NCBI GenBank assembly: GCA_040755995.1
Contig: JBFMAF010000032.1
Span: 1-64,000 of the forward strand
Direction of reading: 5' to 3'
Source of the DNA: Acidobacteriota bacterium
GTDB lineage: Bacteria; Acidobacteriota; CAIWXX01
Length of the DNA: 64,000 nucleotides
Below the pieces are notes generated by a model that worked only from the letters and a program-made list of their open reading frames with translations, did no database searches and was not told the DNA's origin. This document shows positions 20,890 through 33,757 of the stretch, one piece after another; within the stretch, counting starts at the first letter, position 1, and every line of letters starts with the position of its first letter. The position numbers and the translations under genes were made by a program.

Positions 20890-21193
20890 CCTCCTGTGAC
20901 TGCCCACATGTAGCGCCCGCGGCAGCCGCGCCGCTCACGCACTAGAGCCCACGCCCGCCGCTATCATACTACCCGAGCCTGCCGTTGAGAAACCGCATTG
21001 GGGTTCGCGTCTCCGCTGAAGGCAGTGCGCGATCAAACTGAACCCGCCCATGCACTTGATAAGGAATTCGAACAACAGTATTATCAAAGAGGAATGCATT
21101 CCAGGTTCGCGCGGAAGATCGCATCAGGATTCCGTGTGGACGGGAATCCCACGGAGAGTGTTTAAGGGCCACCGATCGACTCGATATCCGGCC

Positions 21194-21871
21194 ATGAACA
21201 GGGAGAGACGGAAGTCACCACGCTACCGGGTCGGCAAGATCCTGGGCAGCATACTGTTCAGAGCGGATGCGCGAGTCCAGGATGTGAGTGTGGCCGGGAT
21301 GAAGGTCGTCACAAACACCCAGCTGCGAGTCGGCCGGCCGTGCATCGTGTCGTTGGGAGGCGGACGGGGAATGCTGCAGCTCAGCGGCTCGGTCGTGCGC
21401 TGCGTCCTCCGAGGCACACAACGAAACGAGAAGGGTGAAAGCGAGCTGGTCTACGAGGCGGGCATCAGTTTCCAGGGGATGTCGGATGAGACCGCCGCGA
21501 TGCTCCGCAATTTCCTCCAGGAAAGCGTCCAGATCGACATGGATAGAAAGGTGTCCGGGCGCTTCATGCCGGACAGGAGGAATGAAGCCTCATCGATCCG
21601 AGAGCAATCGTTTCAGGTCTGTGCTCTGTGCCTCGCAGGGATGAGAGTAGTCACATCCGGAAGACCGATGTTGGGCCCCGTCCCGGAAATCGAGCTCAAC
21701 CTGGGCCATCACGGCACCGTCAGGTCGCATGCCCGCGTCCAGGAAGTGCCGGCCGCACGAGGCCCGGAGAACGAGCACACCTTCGACGTCGAGTTCCTCA
21801 ACATGGGAGCAGACAGCAGGAACAGGCTCGGCCGATTCATTACAGATTCGTTCTCTGGGCCGGCTTCCTGA
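21194..21871 (+). CDS. PilZ-domain (c-di-GMP-binding) protein with a degenerate second PilZ-like domain
   Basis: RRKSPR and DVSVAG motifs (RxxxR, DxSxxG). Confidence 0.75.
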   Translation: MNRERRKSPRYRVGKILGSILFRADARVQDVSVAGMKVVTNTQLRVGRPCIVSLGGGRGMLQLSGSVVRCVLRGTQRNEKGESELVYEAGISFQGMSDETAAMLRNFLQESVQIDMDRKVSGRFMPDRRNEASSIREQSFQVCALCLAGMRVVTSGRPMLGPVPEIELNLGHHGTVRSHARVQEVPAARGPENEHTFDVEFLNMGADSRNRLGRFITDSFSGPAS

Positions 21872-22334: not shown

Positions 22335-23030
22335 TCAGATGACCTGCAACTCCTGCAGGACCTGCAAGACGGGCGGGGTTTGCCACAGCCACCTCGCACG
22401 TAGCCAAAAGGCGGATAGTGAAGAAGAGCGGTACACCCCATCGGCATCCGGTTCCACCAGCCGATACCGACCGTCGGCATCCAGTTGGTAGAATTCCACA
22501 CGTTGCCGCAAAGGATCAATCAACCAATACTCGGGAATACCGGCTCGTTCATACTCGTAGTACTTTGCGCCGCGGTCGCGGTCGAGGCTATCAGGTGAAA
22601 CGATCTCAACCACCAGATCCGCCGGGCCATCCAGAAAAGTATCCTTCAGCCGATCCATATGCTTACTAGCCACAAACAACAGGTCCGGTTCCCGGCCTTG
22701 TTCCAGCTTGATCTGAAACGGTGCGCTGATGACCACACCCAGGTTGTGCGCCTCGGCATATATCCCCATGATCTTGAGCAAGAAATCCGCAATGTTCTGA
22801 TGCTGCTTCGACGCCGGACTGCTCATCACCACCTCCCCATCCACCCACTCGGCCAACGTGTCCTCGTCGGCCCAAGACAGGAACTCCTCGTAGGTCATCT
22901 TGCGGCGCTCGATTGGTCCCAGCAGCACCTCAATCAACCGGCGGCGCAGGTCATCACCCCGTCCGGACCCTTCCCCCGGCGATCTGCGCGGCGTATTCTC
23001 CGGTGGGGCAACAACTCCTTGCTCGCTCAC
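22335..23030 (-). CDS. Uma2-family (PD-(D/E)xK) endonuclease
   Basis: MTYEEF, EWVDG, EPDL, DLVVEIVSP, GIPEYWLIDP. Confidence 0.92.
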   Translation of the reverse strand: MSEQGVVAPPENTPRRSPGEGSGRGDDLRRRLIEVLLGPIERRKMTYEEFLSWADEDTLAEWVDGEVVMSSPASKQHQNIADFLLKIMGIYAEAHNLGVVISAPFQIKLEQGREPDLLFVASKHMDRLKDTFLDGPADLVVEIVSPDSLDRDRGAKYYEYERAGIPEYWLIDPLRQRVEFYQLDADGRYRLVEPDADGVYRSSSLSAFWLRARWLWQTPPVLQVLQELQVI

Positions 23031-23234: not shown

Positions 23235-26200
23235 ATGAGCGTCGTCGTTGTCGCCGAGAAGCCTTCCGTCGCGCGCGATATCGCGCAGGTAGTCGGAGCA
23301 CGCGAGCGTGGCGACGGGTACCTGCACGGCGGCGGATGCGTTGTCACGTGGGCAGTCGGACACCTGGTCATGCTCGCCGAGCCGCATCAGATCGAGGCTG
23401 CATGGAAACTCTGGCGGCGCGAGTCGCTGCCGATGCTTCCGCGCTCGTGGCCGCTCGTGGTCATCGAGGAAACACGGGCCCAGTTCGAGGTCGTCCGCAG
23501 GCTCATCAACGCCGCCTCCACCGAACGTCTGATCTGCGCCACGGACGCCGGGCGAGAGGGCGAGCTGATTTTTCGATTCATCTACGAGGCTGCTCATTGT
23601 CGCAAGCCGGTCCGCCGGCTGTGGCTCTCCTCGATGGTCCCCGAGGCAATCAGGTCCGCGTTGCAGTCTCTGCGGGACTGGGGCGACTACGACCGCCTCG
23701 CCGCAGCGGCGCGCGGCCGCGCTCAGGCCGACTGGCTCGTCGGCATGAATCTGTCGCGGGCATACACGCTGACACACGGCGAGACCCTTTCGGTGGGCCG
23801 CGTCCAGACCCCCACCCTCGCCATGGTCGTGGCGCGGGAGAAGGAGATCGAGGCGTTCACGCCCGAGGACTTCTACGAAGTCACGGCGACCTTTCAGCCG
23901 GTCCGGCCCGAAGGAAGCGCCCCGGCGCACGGACCCGCGACCTACACCGGGATCTGGTTCCGGCGCCAGGGCCCTCCCGAGAAGCTGCGCGAGGCGGCTC
24001 GTTCCAATCGCCGTCTCCCCGCCGACGGGATCGAGGCGCAGCGCATCGCCGACAGGGTGCGACGCGCCGGGTGTGGGCTGATCGAGTCGATCGAGGAAGA
24101 GACCAAACGCCTTCCTCCGCCTCTCCTCCACGACCTCGCCGACCTTCAGCGACAGGCCAACCGGCTCTATGGCTTCACGGCCCAGAAGACGCTGGAGACC
24201 GCGCAGCGTCTGTACGAGACCCACAAGCTCCTCAGCTACCCCCGCACCGACAGCCGGCATCTCTCGACCGCCGTCGCCGCGACTCTCCCGGATGTCGTCC
24301 GAGCGGTCTCGGGTCCTTATCGCGATCTCCTCGCTGCGGGGACGGGACAGCATCCGCTGTCCCGGCGCTTCGTAGACGACACCAAGGTCACGGACCACCA
24401 CGCGATCATTCCCACTACGTCGAGCGCGGAGGCGGCTCGACTGACCGAAGACGAGGGTCGCGTATATGACCTCGTCTGCCGCCGCTTGCTGGCGGCCTGG
24501 CACACCGACCATGTCTGGGCGGTGACCACTCTGATTACCACCGTCGACTCGCAGGACCCGCGCGGTGAGCGCATCGTCGATAGCTTCAGCACGACCGGGA
24601 TCGCGACGATCGAGCAAGGATGGAAATCGATCGAGCCGGCCGACCGGCCCCGCAGCCCCCGCGTGACTCAGGATCAGCAGCCGGCAGACCTGGGAAGCGA
24701 CCTGCCGTCCGGGCTCCTGGCAGGTCAGGCCGCAGATGTGCAGGCGATCGAAGCCCAGAAGAAGCAGACTCGGCCGCCCAGGCGATTCACCGACGCCACG
24801 CTGCTCACGGCCATGGAGAGCGCCGGCCGCGGACTCGACGACAAGGCACTCTCGCGGGCTATGCAGGACTGCGGGATTGGCACACCCGCCACGCGCGCCG
24901 CCATCATCGAGCTGCTGCTGGCTCGCGGCTTCATCGCGCGCGAGGCGAAGACGCTGAGCGCCACGCCGAAGGGAATCCATCTGATCGATCTGGTGCATCC
25001 GGCAGTCAAGACCCCGGCCATGACGGGCGAGTGGGAGGCGAAACTGCGCCGGATCGAGCGCGGTGAAGGGGATCTGCGGGAGTTCATGCATGGCATCGAG
25101 GAATACGTCCGGCAGGTCGTGGGAATCGTCTTCTCGACGCATACTGGCACGACGCCGCAGTCTCATCCGCGACCGGAACCCGCGCACACGCCATCGGCGG
25201 AACCCGTGGTAACGCCGTCAACCGCCCCCGGGCCCTCGGCGCAACCTGCTGCGACACCGTCGACTGCCTCCACACCGCCCGCTCCGAGTGCTGCACGGGC
25301 AACTCCCGGCGCCGGCCCGGCCTTGGCCGATACACTCAAGCGCCTCTTCCGATTCGACGGCTTCCGGCCGTACCAGGAGGCGGTCTGTAGCGCCGTTGTC
25401 GCGGGCGAAGACGTGCTTCTGGTCATGCCGACAGGCGCCGGCAAGTCGCTATGCTACCAGCTTCCCGGGATCGTGCGCGGCGGTACTACACTCGTCGTAA
25501 GCCCGCTGATTGCTCTCATGGAGGACCAGGTAGGGAAGCTCCAACAGCTCGGCCTGCGGGCGGACCGCATACACTCGGCGCGCGACCGTGTACACTTTCG
25601 CGCCGTCTGCGACGAGTACCTCGCAGGGCGGCTCGACTTCCTCTTCGTCGCTCCGGAGCGGCTGGGCGTCCCCGGCTTTCCCGACCTGCTCGCGCGCCGG
25701 CCCCCCGCGCTCGTCGCCGTGGACGAGGCGCACTGCATCTCGCACTGGGGGCATGATTTCCGCCCCGACTATCGAATGCTGGGCCAGCGCCTCCCGCAGC
25801 TTCGCCCCGCGCCCGTGATCGCCATGACCGCCACTGCTACGCCTCGCGTGCAGGCCGACATCGCCGAGCAGCTCCGGCTCTCGAGCCCGCGGCGATTCAT
25901 CCACGGCTTCCGTCGCGAGAACATCGCGATCGAGGTGGTGGAGGTGCCGAAGCCGGAGAGGGGCGAAATCGTCGCGGCACTGCTGGCCGATCCGGCTCGA
26001 CGCCCCGCCATCCTCTACGCTCCCACGCGGCGGGATTCCGAGGCGCTGGCTCACAGGCTGGCCGGCCGGATTCCCGCCGCAGCCTACCACGCCGGCATGC
26101 CCGGGGCCGCGCGAGATTCGGCGCAGACCCGATTCATCGCCGGAGAAGTGGACACCGTAGTGGCGACGATCGCATTCGGCATGGGCGTAGACAAGCCCGA

Positions 26201-27419
26201 TGTGCGCACCGTCGTCCACCTGGCGCTCCCCCAGACCCTCGAAGGCTACTACCAGGAGATCGGCCGCGCCGGCCGCGACCGCAAGCCGTCCCGCGCCATC
26301 CTCATGCACTCATTCGCCGATCGCAAGATCAACGAGTTCTTCCGCGAGCGCGACTACCCCGACCCGCGGATGCTGCAGCTGATCTACGGACAGCTGGGGC
26401 CGAAGCCGGAGGCGAGGGAGGAGCTGAGACGGAGGGCCACCGTGCCCGACGAGATCTTCGACGTCGCGCTGGAGAAGCTCTGGATACACGGCGGCGCGCT
26501 CCTCGATTCGAATGACGCGGTGCGTCGTGGCGAGGCGCAGTGGGCCGCCGGCTACGAGGCACAGCGGGCGCTCCGGAAGGAGCAGGAGGAAGAGATGGCG
26601 CGCTTCGCGCGCAGCCACGGCTGCCGGATGCTGCACCTGGTGCGGCATTTCGGCGACAGCACCGATCCGGGCCACTCCTGCCGGCTCTGCGACAACTGCG
26701 GCCAGATCGCGGCGCTCCCCCGCCCAACGCGCAGGCCGGATGAGGCCGAGCAGCAGGCGATGCGGGCAATAGTCGAAGCGCTCAAGAAATGCGGAAGCGC
26801 ATCAACCGGGAAGCTCTATCGGGATCTCTTCGAAGGCAAGGGGCTGGAACGATCGGCCTATGAGACGCTGCTCTCGGCGCTCACGCGCGCCGGCGTGCTA
26901 GCCATCACCAGGGAGGATTTCGAGAAAGACGGGCGGCAGATAGAGTACCAGCGGGTGCGGCTGACGCGAGAGGGGTGGGAGGCGGGGGCGAAGCGGGTCG
27001 AGGATGTCGAGGTGTCCGGCGCGCTGGCGGCGGCCGGCCCGCGGGGGCTGCGACGCCGGCGTGCGAAGCGGATCCGCGAGGCACCCTCGCGCAGCGAGCA
27101 GCCGGCGCGGCAGGCCCAGGCGGAGCCGCACCAGAGACCGGTCGAAGCACGGCATCCGCGGCCGCTCCAGGCAGAAGATCGAATCAGGGCGTCCGAGCCG
27201 CAGCAGGAACTGGTCGAAGCGCTCCGTGCGTGGAGACTCGCCACATCGAAGCGGCGGCGCACGCCGGCCTTCCGCATTCTGCACGACAGTACGCTCTATG
27301 CCATCGCCTCGGCGGGCCCGCGCACGGAGACCGAGCTGCTGGAGGTCCGCGGAGTTGGTCCCGCCTTCATCCGCAAGTACGGCGCCGAGGTGCTGAAGAT
27401 CGTGCGCGGAGGCGCCTGA
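23235..27419 (+). CDS. topB: DNA topoisomerase III fused to RecQ helicase (with Zn-binding and HRDC domains)
   Basis: TOPRIM AEKPSVA and TDAGREGE, catalytic SYPRTD; Pro/Thr/Ala linker; MPTGAGKSLCYQLP, DEAHCISHWGHDFRPDY, ATIAFGMGVDK, QEIGRAGRD, CRLCDNC; C-terminal HRDC. Confidence 0.93.
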   Translation: MSVVVVAEKPSVARDIAQVVGARERGDGYLHGGGCVVTWAVGHLVMLAEPHQIEAAWKLWRRESLPMLPRSWPLVVIEETRAQFEVVRRLINAASTERLICATDAGREGELIFRFIYEAAHCRKPVRRLWLSSMVPEAIRSALQSLRDWGDYDRLAAAARGRAQADWLVGMNLSRAYTLTHGETLSVGRVQTPTLAMVVAREKEIEAFTPEDFYEVTATFQPVRPEGSAPAHGPATYTGIWFRRQGPPEKLREAARSNRRLPADGIEAQRIADRVRRAGCGLIESIEEETKRLPPPLLHDLADLQRQANRLYGFTAQKTLETAQRLYETHKLLSYPRTDSRHLSTAVAATLPDVVRAVSGPYRDLLAAGTGQHPLSRRFVDDTKVTDHHAIIPTTSSAEAARLTEDEGRVYDLVCRRLLAAWHTDHVWAVTTLITTVDSQDPRGERIVDSFSTTGIATIEQGWKSIEPADRPRSPRVTQDQQPADLGSDLPSGLLAGQAADVQAIEAQKKQTRPPRRFTDATLLTAMESAGRGLDDKALSRAMQDCGIGTPATRAAIIELLLARGFIAREAKTLSATPKGIHLIDLVHPAVKTPAMTGEWEAKLRRIERGEGDLREFMHGIEEYVRQVVGIVFSTHTGTTPQSHPRPEPAHTPSAEPVVTPSTAPGPSAQPAATPSTASTPPAPSAARATPGAGPALADTLKRLFRFDGFRPYQEAVCSAVVAGEDVLLVMPTGAGKSLCYQLPGIVRGGTTLVVSPLIALMEDQVGKLQQLGLRADRIHSARDRVHFRAVCDEYLAGRLDFLFVAPERLGVPGFPDLLARRPPALVAVDEAHCISHWGHDFRPDYRMLGQRLPQLRPAPVIAMTATATPRVQADIAEQLRLSSPRRFIHGFRRENIAIEVVEVPKPERGEIVAALLADPARRPAILYAPTRRDSEALAHRLAGRIPAAAYHAGMPGAARDSAQTRFIAGEVDTVVATIAFGMGVDKPDVRTVVHLALPQTLEGYYQEIGRAGRDRKPSRAILMHSFADRKINEFFRERDYPDPRMLQLIYGQLGPKPEAREELRRRATVPDEIFDVALEKLWIHGGALLDSNDAVRRGEAQWAAGYEAQRALRKEQEEEMARFARSHGCRMLHLVRHFGDSTDPGHSCRLCDNCGQIAALPRPTRRPDEAEQQAMRAIVEALKKCGSASTGKLYRDLFEGKGLERSAYETLLSALTRAGVLAITREDFEKDGRQIEYQRVRLTREGWEAGAKRVEDVEVSGALAAAGPRGLRRRRAKRIREAPSRSEQPARQAQAEPHQRPVEARHPRPLQAEDRIRASEPQQELVEALRAWRLATSKRRRTPAFRILHDSTLYAIASAGPRTETELLEVRGVGPAFIRKYGAEVLKIVRGGA

Positions 27420-27461: not shown

Positions 27462-30400
27462 TTGGGGCCGAGGGCTGGGTCTATCCTTGACCGTCCCTGT
27501 CGGGCCGGGTACACTCGGGCCAGCAGTTGGCTGGAGGCGGAGAAAGGGTTTCTATTGAGCCGACTTTTGGGGTTGCTGCGGCATCGCCTCACGGGAGCCT
27601 CCCACTCTCCACCGTCAACTATCCACCCTTTGAGTGAGAGGCCGACCGGTCCGGACGCCGAGACACGGGGCGGTGAGGTGCCGGATGCAGTGGGCTCCCC
27701 GGCGGTTGCACCCGCACGTGCACCGGCCGCGCCGCAAGGAGTCGTCTCCGAGCACTCGGGGCCATCCGCAGCCGAGGCGCAGAGAACCACGATGTTCGGC
27801 AAGTATCTCATGGGGCCGCTCATCGGCGAGGGCGGGATGGGACGCGTTTACGAGGCCTTCGACAAGACTCTCAACCGTTTCGTGGCTCTCAAGTTTCTTC
27901 GTGGCGACAACCCATCGCTGACGGTGCGTCTGGTGCAGGAGGCGCGTGCGCAGGCCCAGGTCGATCACGACAGCGTCTGCAAGGTCTACGAGGTCGGTGA
28001 GATCGAAGGCAAGCCGTTTATCGCCGTGCAGTACATCCCGGGCCGGACGCTGGACCAGGTGTCGCCGGAGATGACGCTGGAGCAGAAAGTCAGGGTGATG
28101 AGAGAGGTCGCTGAAGGCGTGCACGCAGCTCACAGGATCGGGTTGATCCACCGCGACTTGAAGCCCGCCAACGTGATGGTCGAGAAGACGGCCGAGGGAC
28201 ACTGGAAGCCGTACGTGATGGACTTCGGACTGGCTCGAGAGGTGGCGACTCCCGGGCTGACCGTGACCGGGGTGGTGATGGGGACTGTCGGCTACATGGC
28301 GCCGGAGCAGGCGCGGGGGCGCGTCCACGAGCTCGATCGCCGCACGGACGTCTACGGCCTTGGAGCGACATTCTATGAGATCCTCACGGGCCGCCCGCCG
28401 GTCGCGGGATCAACCAGCATCGATGCCATACTGGCGCTGCTGGAAACGGATCCCGAGCCTGTTCGCAAGCTGAACCCACGCGTGCCTGCCGACATCGAGA
28501 CAGTCGTCATGAAGTGTCTCGAGAAGGAGCCTCAGCGCCGCTACGACTCCGCCAGGGCCCTGGCCGACGACCTGCAGCGGTATCTGGACGGCGAGCCGAT
28601 AGAGGCGCGGCGCGCAAGCTACTCATATCGCATTCTCAAGAAGGCCGGCCGGCACAAGGCGGTCACGGCCGTCGTCGCCGTGTCGTTCACCGTGGTGCTG
28701 GCGCTGGCCGCGGTCGCCTGGTCCGCGTGGCGCACGGCGAAGGTGCGGTCTCGCGTCGCCCAGCAGCTCGGGCAGGCCATCGAACGCATGGACTCCATCA
28801 TGCGAGTGGCGCACACGATTCCCCTGCACGACACGCGCCCGGAGCAGGCCGCCGTGAGGGCCCAGATACGCGATATCGAAGGGCGAATGAAGGAGGCCGG
28901 GAGCGCGGCTGACTGGCCCGGTCATTACGCCATCGGCCGCGGATTCATGGCGCTCCAGGAGACCGAGGCCGCGAAGACTCATCTGGAGGCCGCGTGGAAC
29001 AGCGGCTACCGGGAACCGCAGGTCGCGTATGCGCTGGGCCTCGTCCTGGGTGCCATCTACCAGCGCGAGCTCGACGAGGCGGACCGCATCCCCAACAAAC
29101 CTCAACGTGATGCCCGAAGGAAGAAGCTCGACACGCTCTACCGCGCTCCCGCGCTCGAGATGCTCAGGAATGGCCGCGGATACGAGTCGGGGTCCGTGGA
29201 GTACGGAGAGGCATTGATCGCCTTCTACGAGAAGCGATACCCGGAGGCACTGCGATTGGCCGACAGGGCTCTCCTCAGGGCGCCGTGGATGTACGAAGCC
29301 ATCATTCTCCGCGGCGAGGTCTACTGCGCAGAGGGAATAGACGCCGCCAACCGCGGTGACTACCGGACGGCGGTGCAGTCGTGGGAGGAAGCGGCGCGCG
29401 TGCATCAAGATGCCACGCGAATCGGAGAAAGCGATCCGGCGGCCTACGAGGCGATCTGCGACGTCTGGACGAGGCTCATGTACTTCGAAATCTACCAGCA
29501 TGGCGGCAGCGCGCGGCCGTACTTCGATTGGGCGGTTGCGGCTGCCGAGTCTGCGCTCCGCGCAGAACCCGACAGGGCGACCACGTGCACGAAGCTCTCG
29601 TACGTGTACTATCTGTGGAGCGAGTATCAGATCCGGCACGGCCAGGACCCCTCGGCCTCTTACGACAGGGCGGCGGAAGCCGCGCAGACGGCTGTGCGAA
29701 GACGGCCGGACGATTCCACCGGCTGGCTCCACCTGGGCAACATCCAGCGAGCCAGGGCGGTGTACCTGATGAGGCTGGGGCAGGATCCGGCGGAGGCGCT
29801 TGGCGTTGCTGTCCACAACCTGACCGAGGCCACCCGCAGGCCGCCTCCCAGTGCCTTCGCCCACCACTATCTCGGATGGGCACACACGATACTCGGAACA
29901 GGGGACATGGCGCAGGGCCGAGATCCCACACCCGAGTACCAGGAGGCGATCCGGGAGTATCGCGATGCGATTCGGATAGACCAGGTCTTCGCCGTCACCA
30001 ACAGCGGGAACAACATCGGGGAGACCTTGAACTACCTGAGCCAGTACCGCATGGCGCACGGAATCGATCCCACGGCGTCACTGGACGAGGCACAACGGAT
30101 GTTGGAGGGCATCCTGAGCGCCAACCCCGATCACCTGTACGCTCGACTGAATCTCATAGACACCCTGAGGCTGCGGGCGGAATATCTGTGGCGCACCGGC
30201 GGCGACCCGACGCGCGCATTGGACCAGGCCGATGCTCATTCCGAAACCGTGCTGAAGGTGAACGCCTCCGATCCGGACGTGCGGTTGATCGTGGCTCAAC
30301 CGGCGACTCTGAGGGGCCGCGTTCTCCTGGCCGGAAAAGCAGGCTCCCAGGCCCTGGCACAGGTGCTCGCGACGGCTCGTGCTCACCTGGATCAGGCACT

Positions 30401-30893
30401 TGCACTGAATCCCAACTTCGCCCGTGCGCTCCGCGAGATGGCGGTGCTGGAGATGCTGGAGGCCCAGATGCGCGCCAACGCCGGCCAGGCCGCGGAGCCG
30501 GGATTCCGGCGGGCCGCCGGCGAGCTCGATCGTGCAGCAACGTTGAATCCGAGCGACGCCGAGACGTACGCGAGATCAGCCGAGCTCTGTCGGGTCTGGG
30601 CCGAGTGGCGAGGACGCAGGGGGTTGTCCGTGCGGGAGGAGATACAGCGCGGCCTGGCCGCCGCCGGCAGAGCAGTCTCCATCAACCCGACGCTGGCCGA
30701 CGCCCTCGCCACCGAAGGGGTTCTTCACCTGCTCTCGGCCCGCCTGGAAAGGGACCCGGCACGACGCATGCAGTCGGTGCAGACCGGGCGCGCCGCGGTG
30801 GAGCGCGCCGCCCGCATCGACCCGCTTCTCGGACGCGAGCTCCGAGACGAGCTGGGCGATGCGGCCGAGTCGCTGATCACGGCGGCTCGTTGA
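27462..30893 (+). CDS. Membrane Ser/Thr protein kinase with C-terminal TPR-like repeats
   Basis: GEGGMGRVY, HRDLKPAN, DFG, YMAPE; one TM helix; helical repeats; true start probably downstream of 27462. Confidence 0.9.
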   Translation: MGPRAGSILDRPCRAGYTRASSWLEAEKGFLLSRLLGLLRHRLTGASHSPPSTIHPLSERPTGPDAETRGGEVPDAVGSPAVAPARAPAAPQGVVSEHSGPSAAEAQRTTMFGKYLMGPLIGEGGMGRVYEAFDKTLNRFVALKFLRGDNPSLTVRLVQEARAQAQVDHDSVCKVYEVGEIEGKPFIAVQYIPGRTLDQVSPEMTLEQKVRVMREVAEGVHAAHRIGLIHRDLKPANVMVEKTAEGHWKPYVMDFGLAREVATPGLTVTGVVMGTVGYMAPEQARGRVHELDRRTDVYGLGATFYEILTGRPPVAGSTSIDAILALLETDPEPVRKLNPRVPADIETVVMKCLEKEPQRRYDSARALADDLQRYLDGEPIEARRASYSYRILKKAGRHKAVTAVVAVSFTVVLALAAVAWSAWRTAKVRSRVAQQLGQAIERMDSIMRVAHTIPLHDTRPEQAAVRAQIRDIEGRMKEAGSAADWPGHYAIGRGFMALQETEAAKTHLEAAWNSGYREPQVAYALGLVLGAIYQRELDEADRIPNKPQRDARRKKLDTLYRAPALEMLRNGRGYESGSVEYGEALIAFYEKRYPEALRLADRALLRAPWMYEAIILRGEVYCAEGIDAANRGDYRTAVQSWEEAARVHQDATRIGESDPAAYEAICDVWTRLMYFEIYQHGGSARPYFDWAVAAAESALRAEPDRATTCTKLSYVYYLWSEYQIRHGQDPSASYDRAAEAAQTAVRRRPDDSTGWLHLGNIQRARAVYLMRLGQDPAEALGVAVHNLTEATRRPPPSAFAHHYLGWAHTILGTGDMAQGRDPTPEYQEAIREYRDAIRIDQVFAVTNSGNNIGETLNYLSQYRMAHGIDPTASLDEAQRMLEGILSANPDHLYARLNLIDTLRLRAEYLWRTGGDPTRALDQADAHSETVLKVNASDPDVRLIVAQPATLRGRVLLAGKAGSQALAQVLATARAHLDQALALNPNFARALREMAVLEMLEAQMRANAGQAAEPGFRRAAGELDRAATLNPSDAETYARSAELCRVWAEWRGRRGLSVREEIQRGLAAAGRAVSINPTLADALATEGVLHLLSARLERDPARRMQSVQTGRAAVERAARIDPLLGRELRDELGDAAESLITAAR

Positions 30894-30972: not shown

Positions 30973-31956
30973 CTATTGCGTACCCTTCGGGAAGGTGCTC
31001 TCGTAGGCTCTGCTGACGGTCGAGTCCCCGCGCCCGGCGACCGCATCATGGATTCTCTGATGCAGTGCGTCATCTGCCGCGTATATCTTCAGCGCTCGCA
31101 CGGCCGCCGCGGCGGACTCCGAGTGGTCCTGAGCGACGACCTTCAGGAGGTAGTCGAACGACACGTCACTGCGCGAGAGCGCGATCGGAAGCAGCAGCAT
31201 CGTTCTGGTCTCGCGATCGGCGGCGGCTTCGCGGTGCTTCAGCAAGGCATCGAGCGCCGCGGGGCTCCGCGACTCCCCCAGCGCGAGTGCGGCTCCTTCG
31301 GCAATCAGGATGTCCTGCGAATCGAGAAACGACGCCACCAGTGGCAGGGACCGGCCGGCACTTATGCTCATGAGCCCGGCGAAGCACTCGCTCAGGACTG
31401 CGGGTTCCCGATCTCGCACAAGCACCTTCAAGCGCAGCAGCAGTTCGGCTCTCTCTTCATTCATGTACGTCAGCGCCCTGACGGCGCCGGCGCGGGCTTG
31501 TGGCTCCGGGTCCGCCAGCAATGCCACGAGCTCGAAGAAGACATCAGGGACTTCCTGCCGGGCCAGGGCCATTGCGCAGATTGCTCGAAGAGGAGCTGCC
31601 GTGTCGTGATAGCCGCCGAACACAGGCTCTCGCTGCACATGTCGAACCCCGCGCCTGAACACGTCGATCGCGTCCGCCTCCAGCTTCACCAAGGTTTCAA
31701 GTATCGCCAACTTGGCGTAGCACCCTTTGTCAGTGTCAGCGGGGTCCTCCATGAATCGTGCGAACGCCCGGGTGAGCTCAGGCGCGAACTCGCGCAGATG
31801 TTTCTCCGCGACAACCTTTGCGGCTTTCCCAACGATCAGGCGGTTTGGATTCGCAATAGAGGCTCGAATGTACTCGATGTCCTCCTCAGTGAGCGTCCGT
31901 TTACCCAGTTCGCCGAGTTGTGCCACGGCTTCTTCCGTTCGACTCTTCTTGGCCAT
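30973..31956 (-). CDS. HEAT-repeat protein
   Basis: Repeated LADPEPQARAGAVRAL and AALALGESR helical units. Confidence 0.75.
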   Translation of the reverse strand: MAKKSRTEEAVAQLGELGKRTLTEEDIEYIRASIANPNRLIVGKAAKVVAEKHLREFAPELTRAFARFMEDPADTDKGCYAKLAILETLVKLEADAIDVFRRGVRHVQREPVFGGYHDTAAPLRAICAMALARQEVPDVFFELVALLADPEPQARAGAVRALTYMNEERAELLLRLKVLVRDREPAVLSECFAGLMSISAGRSLPLVASFLDSQDILIAEGAALALGESRSPAALDALLKHREAAADRETRTMLLLPIALSRSDVSFDYLLKVVAQDHSESAAAAVRALKIYAADDALHQRIHDAVAGRGDSTVSRAYESTFPKGTQ

Positions 31957-32084
31957 GTGGCTCAATCTATCTCAAAGGGCGGCCTGCCGGCGAGTCGGCG
32001 CCTCCGGCAGCCCGGCTCTCTGCGATACTCCTCAGGTACGATATCGAGCGCCCTAGCCTCCCCCTGGAGGCGGATGGCCCGCGA

Positions 32085-33539
32085 CTACTCCTGCACGCGG
32101 TCCAGCCAGCGCCGGATGCGACGGCGCACGTCCTCGGCGGTGGGTGGATCGTAGTTTGACATGACGACGATCGTGTAGCCGCTTCGCGGGTCCCACTCGA
32201 GCACGGAGTTGATTCCCGGCGCACCGCCGGCGATGAGGAAGCCGGTGAGGGCGCGGTCGAAGCTCGTCCCGCCTTCGGCCGGCTGCCTGCCCGTGGACAG
32301 ATATTCGGTGTACGCAGGGCTAAGCAGTTTGCATTCGACAAAGGCAGTCGTGAACTTCTGCAGGTCCTCTGCCGTCGAGTAGCCTCCACCCGCCGAGCTG
32401 CCTTTCGCGGGGCGCGTGTAGATGTTGTTCCGGCGCGGCTCTGACGGGTGCTCTTCGCCGTCCCAGCCGCGTGTGTACCCGGAAGCCACGTTGGGTGTGG
32501 GCACATCGGCGTCGAAGGAATCGCTGCTCTCCATGCCGGCGGGCTTGAAGATGTGCTCGCGCACGTAATCGTAGTAGCTCTTTCGGCTCACCTTCTCCAC
32601 GATCGCTCCCAGCACGACATAGCCGCCGTTCGAGTACCGGTTCTGGCTGCCGGGCTCGAATTGAAGCGGATTGGAAGCGAATAGCGGGAGATAGTCGGCG
32701 ATTGCACGCAGTCTGTTCTTCGGTGTCTCGGCGTACTTCGGCCCGAAGAAATCGCCGATACCCGAGGTCATGTCCACGAGATGGCGGATGGTGACCTTCT
32801 GTGCGGCCTCTTTGTTCGGGTATTCCGGGAGGAACTTGCCGATCGGGTCGTCGAGCGATAGAGCGCCCTTCTCGAGCAGTTGCCAGATGGCGATCTTTGT
32901 GAAGCGCTTGTTGATCGACCCCAGGTTGAAGCGGGTGTCGAGACGATTAGGCACTCCGTATTCCTTGCTCGCGAGGCCGTAGGCTTCCGCGAACAACGGC
33001 TTCCCCTCCTTGGCGATGAGGACGGTGCCGGAGAAGGCGTCCGCCTTGGTCGCATCGTCGAAATAGCGTCGCAGCATCTCCAGCATTTCCGCCTGCGTGA
33101 TCGGCGTCTGAGGCTCATTCGCCACGGACTCGTCGGAATCCTGCGCCCGTATGCTGCGAAGTTTGTGAGGCGGTGCTGGATCCAGATCGAAGCTGTACTC
33201 CAGCCACTCTCCCTTTGCCGTCTTGACCAGCACGAGCAGAATCGGTTCCGGCGACCGGAGGACTTTGACCGGCGTCAGCGCTCCAGCCTCACCCCGGAGC
33301 TCCGCATAGGTCTTCAGCCGCAGATCGATCGGACGAGCACGCAGCGCATCATCTGCGATGTTCTCGGTGAGAAACGCGCGCATCGCCTCTTCGTCTCCGG
33401 AGTTGAACGCGGCGAAGTATGCGGCGGCGCGCCGTCCCGCCACAGTGTCGGGCATCGTCGTCTGCCCAGCCTCCTCCGCTGCCGAGGCCGGCAAGACGAA
33501 CCACATCATCATTACGGCCCATGCACATCCCGATTTCAT
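32085..33539 (-). CDS. Secreted serine hydrolase (beta-lactamase/AmpC-like family)
   Basis: Signal peptide; SxxK (GSINK), YSN, FEPG; GGGAGG RBS before ATG 33539. Confidence 0.88.
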   Translation of the reverse strand: MKSGCAWAVMMMWFVLPASAAEEAGQTTMPDTVAGRRAAAYFAAFNSGDEEAMRAFLTENIADDALRARPIDLRLKTYAELRGEAGALTPVKVLRSPEPILLVLVKTAKGEWLEYSFDLDPAPPHKLRSIRAQDSDESVANEPQTPITQAEMLEMLRRYFDDATKADAFSGTVLIAKEGKPLFAEAYGLASKEYGVPNRLDTRFNLGSINKRFTKIAIWQLLEKGALSLDDPIGKFLPEYPNKEAAQKVTIRHLVDMTSGIGDFFGPKYAETPKNRLRAIADYLPLFASNPLQFEPGSQNRYSNGGYVVLGAIVEKVSRKSYYDYVREHIFKPAGMESSDSFDADVPTPNVASGYTRGWDGEEHPSEPRRNNIYTRPAKGSSAGGGYSTAEDLQKFTTAFVECKLLSPAYTEYLSTGRQPAEGGTSFDRALTGFLIAGGAPGINSVLEWDPRSGYTIVVMSNYDPPTAEDVRRRIRRWLDRVQE

Positions 33540-33702
33540 TGGCCTCCCCTTTGGATGATCTGCGACTTCCCTACACTCAGGGCCGGTTGAGCCCTCGGGT
33601 TCGTCCGGAACGCGTTTGGCTATGCGCCTGACCCACACATGATAACTACGCACGGGATGCACACCGGTTCTATTATTGTTGCGATCCTCTCGGTGTGATT
33701 CC

Positions 33703-33757
33703 TTCACGATTTCTTAACACCTGATTCATCGTGCATTAACCGGGTGCCCGGTATACT
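33703..33757 (+). promoter_or_regulatory. Pho-box-like promoter (four direct repeats at 11-bp period plus -10)
   Basis: TTCAC 33703, TTAAC 33714, TTCAT 33725, TTAAC 33736; TATACT at 33752-33757; upstream of porin-pstS. Confidence 0.75.

Follow-up and report, generated by a model that had tools for sequence, protein, structure and literature searches.

A single gene in the 64,000-nucleotide stretch of an Acidobacteriota genome analysed here (assembly GCA_040755995.1, contig JBFMAF010000032.1; the window) encodes a topoisomerase III (TopB) core joined to a RecQ-family helicase with an HRDC domain, and the two enzymes probably work as a tethered pair. The ATP-driven RecQ helicase would open forks, gaps or recombination joints and pass ssDNA to its topoisomerase partner. 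The topoisomerase would then use Tyr335 to cut one strand, pass another and reseal, with the outcome that hemicatenanes, forks that converge, and joints of the D-loop or Holliday type could be unlinked. This is the best explanation of a single reading frame, two intact sets of catalytic motifs, family-wide conservation and joint inheritance of the halves. Judged from sequence, the likely task of the fusion is the unlinking of ssDNA-containing fork or recombination intermediates, a job in genome maintenance that would be useful and non-essential. Both halves are well-known enzymes; the new elements are a likely single fusion with repeated losses, a non-canonical RecQ, coupling that appears to be by tether rather than latch, the lack of a topoisomerase IV stand-in role, and a family in whose three genomes no RecG was found.

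The gene is real, intact and encodes one chain: all 1,394 codons are translated without internal stops (Table 1). Domains were called with Pfam and NCBIfam profiles at their curated cut-offs, and Toprim, Topoisom_bac, DEAD (residues 711-872), Helicase_C (921-1015), RecQ_Zn_bind (1108-1155) and HRDC all scored above the Pfam cut-off, with the topoisomerase III part occupying residues 1-632. E8, D104, E108, Y335, R337, K737, D830-E-A-H833, motif VI, and the zinc cysteines 1130, 1149, 1152 and 1155 are invariant in a 44-row alignment. The original prediction of one 1,394-aa ORF with intact type IA motifs, RecQ motifs, zinc site and HRDC is thus borne out, and the Pro/Thr/Ala linker that it set at about 25140-25330 lies in frame within a few nucleotides of that position (about 25131-25322). 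A genome search identified the fusion gene as both the sole TopB and the sole RecQ of the source genome. A promoter and terminator scan at the gene gave signals no better than chance.

Table 1. Features of the topoisomerase III-RecQ fusion gene, in positions of the window.
Feature	Residues	Coordinates	Strand	Basis
Whole gene: topoisomerase III-linker-RecQ-HRDC fusion	1394 aa	23235..27419	+	ORF translation, Pfam, NCBIfam
Toprim domain, E8 + D104-A-G-R-E108	4-132	23244..23630	+	PF01751; E. coli Topo III alignment
Type IA topoisomerase core	152-618	23688..25088	+	PF01131, 350 bits
Catalytic Tyr codon	335	24237-24239	+	Y335 invariant, as is Arg337
Segment aligned to Topo III decatenation loop	about 528-547	24816..24875	+	E. 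coli Topo III alignment
Pro/Thr/Ala/Ser-rich linker	633-696	25131..25322	+	Sequence
RecQ helicase core: Walker A K737, DEAH 830-833, aromatic-rich loop, motif VI	697-1030	25323..26324	+	Pfam, NCBIfam, alignments
Inserted domain, predicted extra winged helix	about 1040-1100	26352..26534	+	AlphaFold2 secondary structure
RecQ Zn-binding site, C1130, C1149, C1152, C1155		26556..26699	+	PF16124
Second predicted winged helix (RQC position)	about 1170-1250	26742..26984	+	AlphaFold2 model
Second linker, low-complexity, basic	1256-1320	27000..27194	+	Unconserved in 120-row alignment
HRDC domain	1323-1390	27201..27404	+	PF00570, 68.7 bits

The topoisomerase half exceeds the TopB family profiles PRK07726 Topo III (643 bits; cut-off 597) and TIGR01056 topB (554; cut-off 516), and its score with the TopA model is below threshold (188 bits against a cut-off of 456). 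E8, Y335 and R337 align with E. coli Topo III. The Toprim motif of type IA enzymes is given as DxD in the available text of a recent review (PMC10969213), and the original prediction had assumed this standard form; the sequence instead reads DxG (DAGREGE), the second Asp being replaced by Gly. DxG is found in 13/13 stand-alone TopBs of the sister group and in 55/57 fused TopBs, and because it is common to all of those stand-alone enzymes it is a trait of the subfamily. TopB enzymes of the DxG type, such as Bacillus TopB, are reported to be active, but the Gly still counts against the tethered-pair reading. The segment corresponding to the decatenation loop, placed by the loop coordinates in E. 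coli Topo III, aligns with that enzyme with a one-residue gap, is of equal length in 182 of 183 matched fused rows, and consists of charged residues to about one-half. All 13 stand-alone TopBs carry CxxC tails at the position taken by linker and RecQ in the fusion. RecQ would have replaced this Zn-ribbon tail, and the topoisomerase half therefore probably relies on RecQ for DNA targeting.

The helicase half exceeds the RecQ family profile TIGR00614 (372 bits; cut-off 220) and misses the recQ equivalog TIGR01389 (467 bits; cut-off 640). We did not detect a Pfam match to RQC (PF09382) in the fusion, although the RQC position is predicted to hold a winged helix nonetheless. Because the equivalog cut-off is missed and the Pfam RQC is lacking, the biochemistry of E. 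coli RecQ may not transfer to this enzyme. An AlphaFold2 model of the RecQ part (pLDDT 94.7) agrees with solved RecQ structures (RecQ 4q48: Z 41.1, rmsd 6.8, 468 residues aligned) and aligns to both 4q48 and 1oyy through the second winged helix, which has a long predicted beta-hairpin bearing F1229, conserved in 95% of fused members. Between motor and zinc site lies an insert of about 70 residues that corresponds to a gap in the alignment with E. coli RecQ; it is predicted to form three helices and a beta-hairpin, has a weak match to the SelB winged helix that is below cut-off (E 0.03), and shares no sequence likeness with the second predicted winged helix. ESM Atlas matches to residues 1028-1260 were limited to RecQ Zn/RQC clusters, and the zinc cysteines are conserved at 98-100% in fused and stand-alone members alike. 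The RecQ half is non-canonical, with a predicted extra winged helix; neither winged-helix unit features in the original prediction.

A one-chain dissolvasome, in which RecQ would converge double Holliday junctions and Topo III remove the last hemicatenane to give non-crossovers like BLM-Top3alpha-RMI, is a narrower form of the tethered-pair explanation. We regard it as possible but doubtful. Its domain set is that of the eukaryotic complex, a bacterial decatenation loop of the kind termed the functional equivalent of Rmi1 (in the available part of PMC13244152) is present, and HRDC and both predicted winged helices are candidate binders of branched DNA. RecG, proposed as the E. coli partner of Topo III in the same text (PMC13244152), was not found among the matches listed for three genomes of the source's family, in a survey that scored the best candidates of each genome, 13 at most. 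These points are set against the presence of RuvC in the source genome, the retention of RecG by at least 19 of 35 other fused genomes, and the absence of HRDC from some fused members: eight of the 50%-identity representatives, with a top+core+...+wh or similar architecture, and also one individual locus. RecG was likewise detected in at least 15 of 17 stand-alone-RecQ genomes and at least 5 of 13 non-fused Myxococcota genomes. A general anticorrelation of RecG with the fusion found no support outside the source's family. Equally tentative is the proposal of an old enzyme family that is a self-contained, RMI-free dissolvasome, a two-winged-helix RecQ with Topo III that would dissolve Holliday junctions and D-loops and, in the RecG-less Acidobacteriota family, take over the job shared by RecG and Topo III in E. 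coli. We detected neither an RMI/OB-fold domain in the chain by Pfam nor a conserved neighbour gene in 32 loci. If this proposal were true, reverse gyrase would no longer be the only natural chimera of a helicase and a type IA topoisomerase, and the BLM-Top3alpha reaction would gain its smallest model.

The broader reading, a tethered pair, draws on the linker and on the history of the family. The linker between topoisomerase and RecQ has a GC3 of 0.66, compared with 0.82-0.86 for the folded parts, and 193 distinct linkers range from 17 to 365 aa (median 63 aa) and are unconserved. A search for RecQ positions conserved in fused members yet relaxed in stand-alone ones found none. Such variation in length, together with the lack of a fusion-specific conserved patch, makes a tether preferable to a reverse-gyrase-like latch, and coupling would occur through local concentration, without a rigid latch. 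Complex prediction with the topoisomerase half and the RecQ motor gave no placement (score 0.00), and a single-sequence AlphaFold2 model of residues 1-1200 (pLDDT 37.6) was excluded from all readings.

Architecture searches, as the original prediction had proposed, showed that the fusion recurs across several bacterial phyla; both halves are present in 119/119 top homologues from several databases, and the fusion is intact in proteins as divergent as about 40% identity. In the 180 fused rows whose topoisomerase start is complete, some of which are duplicates, the Toprim acidic motif is found in 180, YPRTD in 178, Walker A in 176 and DEAH in 180. Phylogenies were quick trees throughout, with support by SH-aLRT alone. 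The 57 fused TopBs form one clade relative to 13 stand-alone TopBs (SH-aLRT 90; 99 for the fused clade in a 30-row tree), and stand-alone copies of the fusion's RecQ subfamily lie scattered between fused ones. This combination of monophyletic fused TopBs and scattered stand-alone RecQs suggests that the fusion likely arose once and that the topoisomerase half was then lost several times, with the helicase retained. The histories of the halves agree, with a double-centred Mantel value of 0.75 for 43 fused proteins (permutation maximum 0.27) and 6 of 10 strong splits identical in the two trees; three strongly supported splits conflict, and the nearest neighbour is common to 13 of the 43 rows. 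Acidobacteriota copies as one clade were rejected (AU p 0.006), which suggests that the gene moves between lineages and that the fusion would have been transferred between phyla. No plasmid carriage was detected (none of 72,556 plasmid records reaches 80% coverage of the protein), nor any conserved gene neighbourhood in the 32 fused loci beyond genus-level synteny. Loss is one-sided: we detected no fusion-type TopB without RecQ in the samples examined, and a Myxococcota sample had RecQ in frame for 21 of its 22 fusion-type TopBs, the remaining one hitting a contig end. In 16 of 17 stand-alone-RecQ genomes no TopB was detected elsewhere in the genome, a count that is a floor given incomplete MAGs, and two genomes carry fused and stand-alone copies of the fusion-type RecQ together. 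As the helicase outlives TopB and no replacement was detected elsewhere in those 16 genomes, the coupling is dispensable.

That the gene merely ensures co-expression or co-transfer of two independent enzymes, the tether adding little coupling, is unlikely. The highly variable linker, a RecQ surface without fusion-specific conservation, the repeated loss of TopB, the scattered Acidobacteriota copies, and E. coli genetics that oppose a RecQ-Topo III pathway (as far as PMC13244152 is available) would all be expected of it, but it sits poorly with the persistence of the fusion down to about 40% identity, with a TopB half that is never found alone in the samples seen, and with the lack of a Zn-ribbon tail on that half.

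It is very unlikely that the fusion is the main chromosome decatenase in place of topoisomerase IV. Although the source genome has a single GyrA/ParC gene, as do 13 of 15 other fused genomes, the same holds for 16 of 17 stand-alone-RecQ genomes, mostly without TopB, and a second GyrA/ParC is found in 7/20 fused, 7/16 stand-alone-TopB and 9/16 no-TopB genomes. A Topo IV stand-in role was rejected on these copy counts. The source genome also encodes gyrase and both Topo VI subunits, A and B; Topo VI occurs in 9 of 52 genomes with no pattern of co-occurrence with the fusion, and a family search gave no match to Topo IB. The decatenation role originally predicted is accordingly weakened in its strong form, that of essential chromosome decatenase, both by the gyrase and Topo VI of the source genome and by the single GyrA/ParC in most relatives without the TopB half and the second copy in some fused genomes.

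An allosteric, reverse-gyrase-like machine driving supercoiling change in one direction with ATP is highly improbable: an SF2 helicase and a type IA topoisomerase do share one chain and the shortest linkers are only 17-25 aa, but the domain order is opposite, the match to TIGR01054 is 91 bits against 472, linkers extend to 365 aa, no fusion-specific patch is conserved, and the helicase half has the full unwinding anatomy of RecQ. The distinction from reverse gyrase drawn in the original prediction therefore stands. An assembly chimera at the linker, or two proteins from a misread frame, has a negligible probability, because although four GTDB loci have a broken reading frame, in one case at the linker, three of the four carry several breaks, as would be expected of read errors, and independent assemblies share the architecture (the 119 top homologues, 2/2 genomes of the same family fused and stop-free, and 9 intact fused loci in named GTDB records), which refutes a chimera at the DNA level.

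We did not find a natural TopB-RecQ fusion described in the full-text literature searched, in agreement with the original statement that no biochemical study was known; most subscription journals and supplements lay outside that scope, so a mention there is possible. The word RecQ has no occurrence in the available text of a 2024 type IA review (PMC10969213). Similar fusions are, as anticipated, annotated: databases hold the proteins as 'DNA topoisomerase 3'. The partnership of RecQ and Topo III is textbook in eukaryotes and contested in bacteria. Cooperation of E. coli TopB and RecQ, on which the original prediction drew, holds in vitro, where the result is reported to be negative rather than positive supercoiling (available parts of PMC7245102 and PMC8185306), and is disputed in vivo: according to the accessible text of a 2026 paper, RecG is the partner of E. 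coli Topo III, RecQ does not act with it in vivo, and no physical contact between RecQ and Topo III is known (PMC13244152). This dispute makes the fusion more useful, not less. A conserved natural fusion means that some bacteria have tied RecQ and Topo III together, and the family would open the disputed cooperation to direct experiment, with natural controls in the topoisomerase-less sister RecQs, linkers that span 17 to 365 aa, and genomes that either have or lack RecG. Single-molecule and cryo-EM studies of coupled unwinding and strand passage would also be easier with one bacterial polypeptide than with the human complex of four subunits. In gene structure, the family is a counter-example to the statement, in the available text of a 2020 paper, that helicase-type IA fusion is unique to hyperthermophiles (PMC7245102).

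The fusion has the same two catalytic cores, zinc site and HRDC as the separate E. coli proteins RecQ and TopB, which act with SSB, and among PDB sequences it matches E. coli Topo III (E 7e-90) and bacterial RecQ (E 1e-83) best. It differs from the E. coli pair in being one chain with a TopB of the PRK07726 subfamily that has DxG and no C-terminal tail, and its RecQ, unlike that of E. coli, belongs to a separate long-branch clade, has the inserted domain and fails TIGR01389. With Sgs1-Top3-Rmi1 and BLM-Top3alpha-RMI1-RMI2 it shares the RecQ-Zn-WH-HRDC order and the physical linkage of RecQ and Topo III; in yeast, Top3/Rmi1 is reported to bind the disordered N terminus of Sgs1, the same order as in the fusion (PMC3905885, available text). 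Unlike those complexes, it is covalent, lacks an RMI/OB-fold part in the chain, and has a Topo III of the bacterial kind, which carries its own loop. Reverse gyrase likewise unites an SF2 helicase with a type IA topoisomerase in a single chain (PMC7245102). The fusion departs from it in its reversed order, its TIGR01054 score (91/472), and a long variable linker in place of a packed latch interface. Bennett and Wang reportedly engineered yeast Top3-Sgs1 fusions in 2001, with Top3 N-terminal, and these are said to have complemented; they were artificial and eukaryotic, whereas the present fusion is natural, bacterial and old. The closest relatives are stand-alone RecQs of the same clade in Acidobacteriaceae, e.g., Tunturibacter empetritectus, which have the same motor, insert, zinc site, second winged helix and HRDC, with 59-68% core identity to the fusion and no topoisomerase; as they are nested among fused members, they are likely derived by loss.

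The gene is one open frame in which Pfam places, all above cut-off, a Toprim domain, a type IA core, two helicase lobes, a RecQ Zn site and an HRDC domain, in that order, bearing out the original prediction of a single-chain topoisomerase III-RecQ-HRDC protein; its Pro/Thr/Ala linker also lies where that prediction put it. With NCBIfam (score/cut-off), the N-terminal half is topoisomerase III (TopB; PRK07726, 643/597; TIGR01056, 554/516) and the C-terminal half belongs to the RecQ family (TIGR00614, 372/220), falling below the E. coli-type recQ equivalog cut-off (467/640). The fusion is classed by sequence with Topo III plus the broad RecQ family, not canonical RecQ. Alignment pairs E8, D104, E108, Y335 and R337 with E. 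coli Topo III catalytic positions and puts Gly where the DxD motif has its second Asp, as in 55/57 fused TopBs and 13/13 stand-alone sister TopBs; the catalytic motifs are retained across the fusion family. CxxC tails follow the core in all 13 stand-alone TopBs, where the fusion instead has its linker and RecQ. Across 193 distinct linkers, length is 17-365 aa (median 63) and composition P/A/G/S-rich.

Fusion gene, its linker and other features (window positions unless a source-genome, G000, contig is named)
Feature	Position	Strand	Remark
PilZ-domain protein	21050-21871	+	Pfam
Uma2 endonuclease-like gene	22335-23030	-	upstream of fusion; not conserved beside homologues
TopB-RecQ fusion gene	23235-27419	+	one open frame, 1394 aa
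Pro/Thr/Ala linker	residues 633-696	+	sequence
Ser/Thr kinase-TPR gene	27462-30893	+	downstream of fusion; not conserved beside homologues
HEAT-repeat protein	30973-31965	-	Pfam
Serine hydrolase, beta-lactamase fold	32085-33707	-	Pfam
Topo VI subunit A / B	G000:C35:125963-127069 / G000:C27:63118-63609	- / +	separate contigs

An AlphaFold2 model of residues 695-1260 (alignment input, 93 rows; pLDDT 94.7, pTM 0.90) resembles solved RecQs (4q48; Z 41.1, rmsd 6.8, 468 aligned). Three helices and a hairpin form an extra unit at about 1040-1100, between the motor and the Zn site, which we read as a putative winged helix with a weak Pfam hint. A second predicted winged helix (about 1170-1250) has a long hairpin with F1229, conserved in 95% of fused rows; such a hairpin splits DNA strands in RECQ1/BLM. 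The insert probably predates the fusion event, because the nearest outgroup RecQs share the long helicase-to-Zn domain gap. Comparison of 161 fused with 40 stand-alone halves yielded no fusion-specific RecQ position (at least 75% conserved in fused and 30 points relaxed in stand-alone). The subfamily of stand-alone RecQs sharing this insert (loci L019, L022-L024, L026-L034, L037-L040 and L053) is mostly from Acidobacteriaceae; several members are 790-915 aa long, and the insert-bearing clade also includes two unplaced representatives with two HRDC domains.

The fusion is probably a tethered helicase-topoisomerase. The RecQ half would engage a fork, gap or joint and open it with ATP; the resulting ssDNA would be the substrate on which Topo III, flexibly tethered on the N-terminal side, carries out strand passage. 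In RecQ-DNA structures the strand freed by unwinding emerges close to the N-terminal lobe of the motor; in the fusion that exit would lie near the site of tether attachment. Double-Holliday-junction dissolution, a narrower case overlapping the tethered-enzyme reading, is a tentative possibility, and independent enzymes within one chain seem unlikely.

The fusion is the sole TopB and sole RecQ of the source genome, which has a TopA-like gene elsewhere, one GyrA/ParC gene, both Topo VI subunits (A recurring in the two family relatives), RuvC and three SSBs, with no match to Topo IB. The SSB paralogues lie on contigs C24, C15 and C10 (L144-L146), only the C24 copy having the usual acidic-Pro-Phe tip. 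No conserved neighbour genes were found beside homologues. A RecG search of the 99.8% complete source genome gave no match above cut-off and no wedge domain, just an Mfd-like match. RecG was not found in any of the 3 genomes of the window's family (G000, G001, G002) and is present in 15/15 non-fused same-phylum genomes; it is kept in 19 of the 35 fused genomes searched, and Myxococcota often lack it regardless of fusion. Its absence with the fusion is a local lead, not a rule, family kin not being independent. A second GyrA/ParC copy occurs in 7/20 fused, 7/16 stand-alone-TopB and 9/16 no-TopB genomes, and is missing in 16/17 genomes that lost the TopB half and 13/15 fused. Substitution for Topo IV, very improbable, was rejected on these counts, a single GyrA/ParC being equally common in TopB-half-losing and fused genomes. 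A reverse-gyrase-like supercoiler is still harder to credit: the reverse gyrase model scores far under its cut-off (91/472, NCBIfam), and by sequence the fusion is classed as distinct from reverse gyrase, as originally held.

An assembly artefact can be dismissed with near certainty, because independent homologues and same-family genomes carry both halves. All 119 non-self proteins among the best 120 database matches (drawn from 3798, not all fused, at E 1e-100 or better; 8000 candidates scored) are 53-64% identical to it and match Pfam families of both halves, topoisomerase and helicase; named top homologues are mostly 'DNA topoisomerase 3' of Acidobacteriota, Thermoanaerobaculia, Bryobacteraceae and Myxococcota. 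The fusion is stop-free in both same-family genomes and was found in 0/38 other same-phylum genomes, a count of carriers that is a floor and in which unpublished G025 enters solely as a negative. A GTDB survey retained 80 loci out of 600 candidates: 9 intact fusions (Solibacteraceae, Bryobacterales, Terriglobia, Polyangiaceae, Oligoflexus and others), 4 fusions broken into frames, 18 stand-alone RecQs with the same insert, 2 loci truncated by contig starts and 47 other RecQs. At L021:5947-9929, TopB and RecQ occupy separate, overlapping frames, the break falling at the linker; either a read error or a genuine early split would explain it. Fusion-type TopB was found in 4/150 Acidobacteriota (source genome included; the window's family falls within this sample, where its two relatives recur) and 22/151 Myxococcota, 21 of the latter in frame with RecQ and one running off its contig. 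No plasmid record carries the fusion. Genomes G051 (L018, L037) and G059 each hold a fused plus a stand-alone copy of the same RecQ type, and G050 holds two fused copies. In Myxococcota G293, G360, G290 and G289, non-fusion-type TopB matches fall within ORFs 1310-1937 aa long and are possibly other TopB fusions.

The TopB tree separates 57 fused TopBs, as a single clade, from 13 stand-alone TopBs and 5 TopAs (SH-aLRT 90). Within the one long-branch clade (support 100) that unites fused and stand-alone RecQs, the fused rows are basal and the stand-alone ones dispersed. With 25 fused RecQs, 11 stand-alone ones confirmed by their loci and 6 outgroup sequences, AU tests reject a single clade of fused RecQs (p 0.0007) and of stand-alone RecQs (p 0.002); 25 additional apparent stand-alone rows in one of the RecQ trees come without locus context and may be fragments. 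Acidobacteriaceae RecQs nest within fused Acidobacteriota (99/99), and 16/17 genomes with a stand-alone RecQ copy have no TopB elsewhere (a floor). The simplest reading would be a single fusion followed by several losses of the topoisomerase half. In 43 fused proteins the two halves share a history (double-centred Mantel 0.75 vs a permutation maximum of 0.27), 6 of 10 strong splits being identical between their trees, with three conflicting pairs. The 12 Acidobacteriota rows are rejected as a single clade (p 0.006), a result compatible with transfer between phyla; no donor is claimed.

The literature searched contained no description of a natural TopB-RecQ fusion, nor did the original prediction know of a biochemical study; engineered yeast Top3-Sgs1 fusions reportedly exist. 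An RMI part is a feature of the dissolvasome, whereas the fusion, known here from sequence, is without one and is therefore not filed as a dissolvasome, though its mode of action is probably similar in part. The fusion is real, conserved and apparently an unstudied variant of the known RecQ-Topo III partnership. Bacterial RecQ-Topo III coupling is disputed (PMC13244152), and the fusion makes that coupling directly testable.
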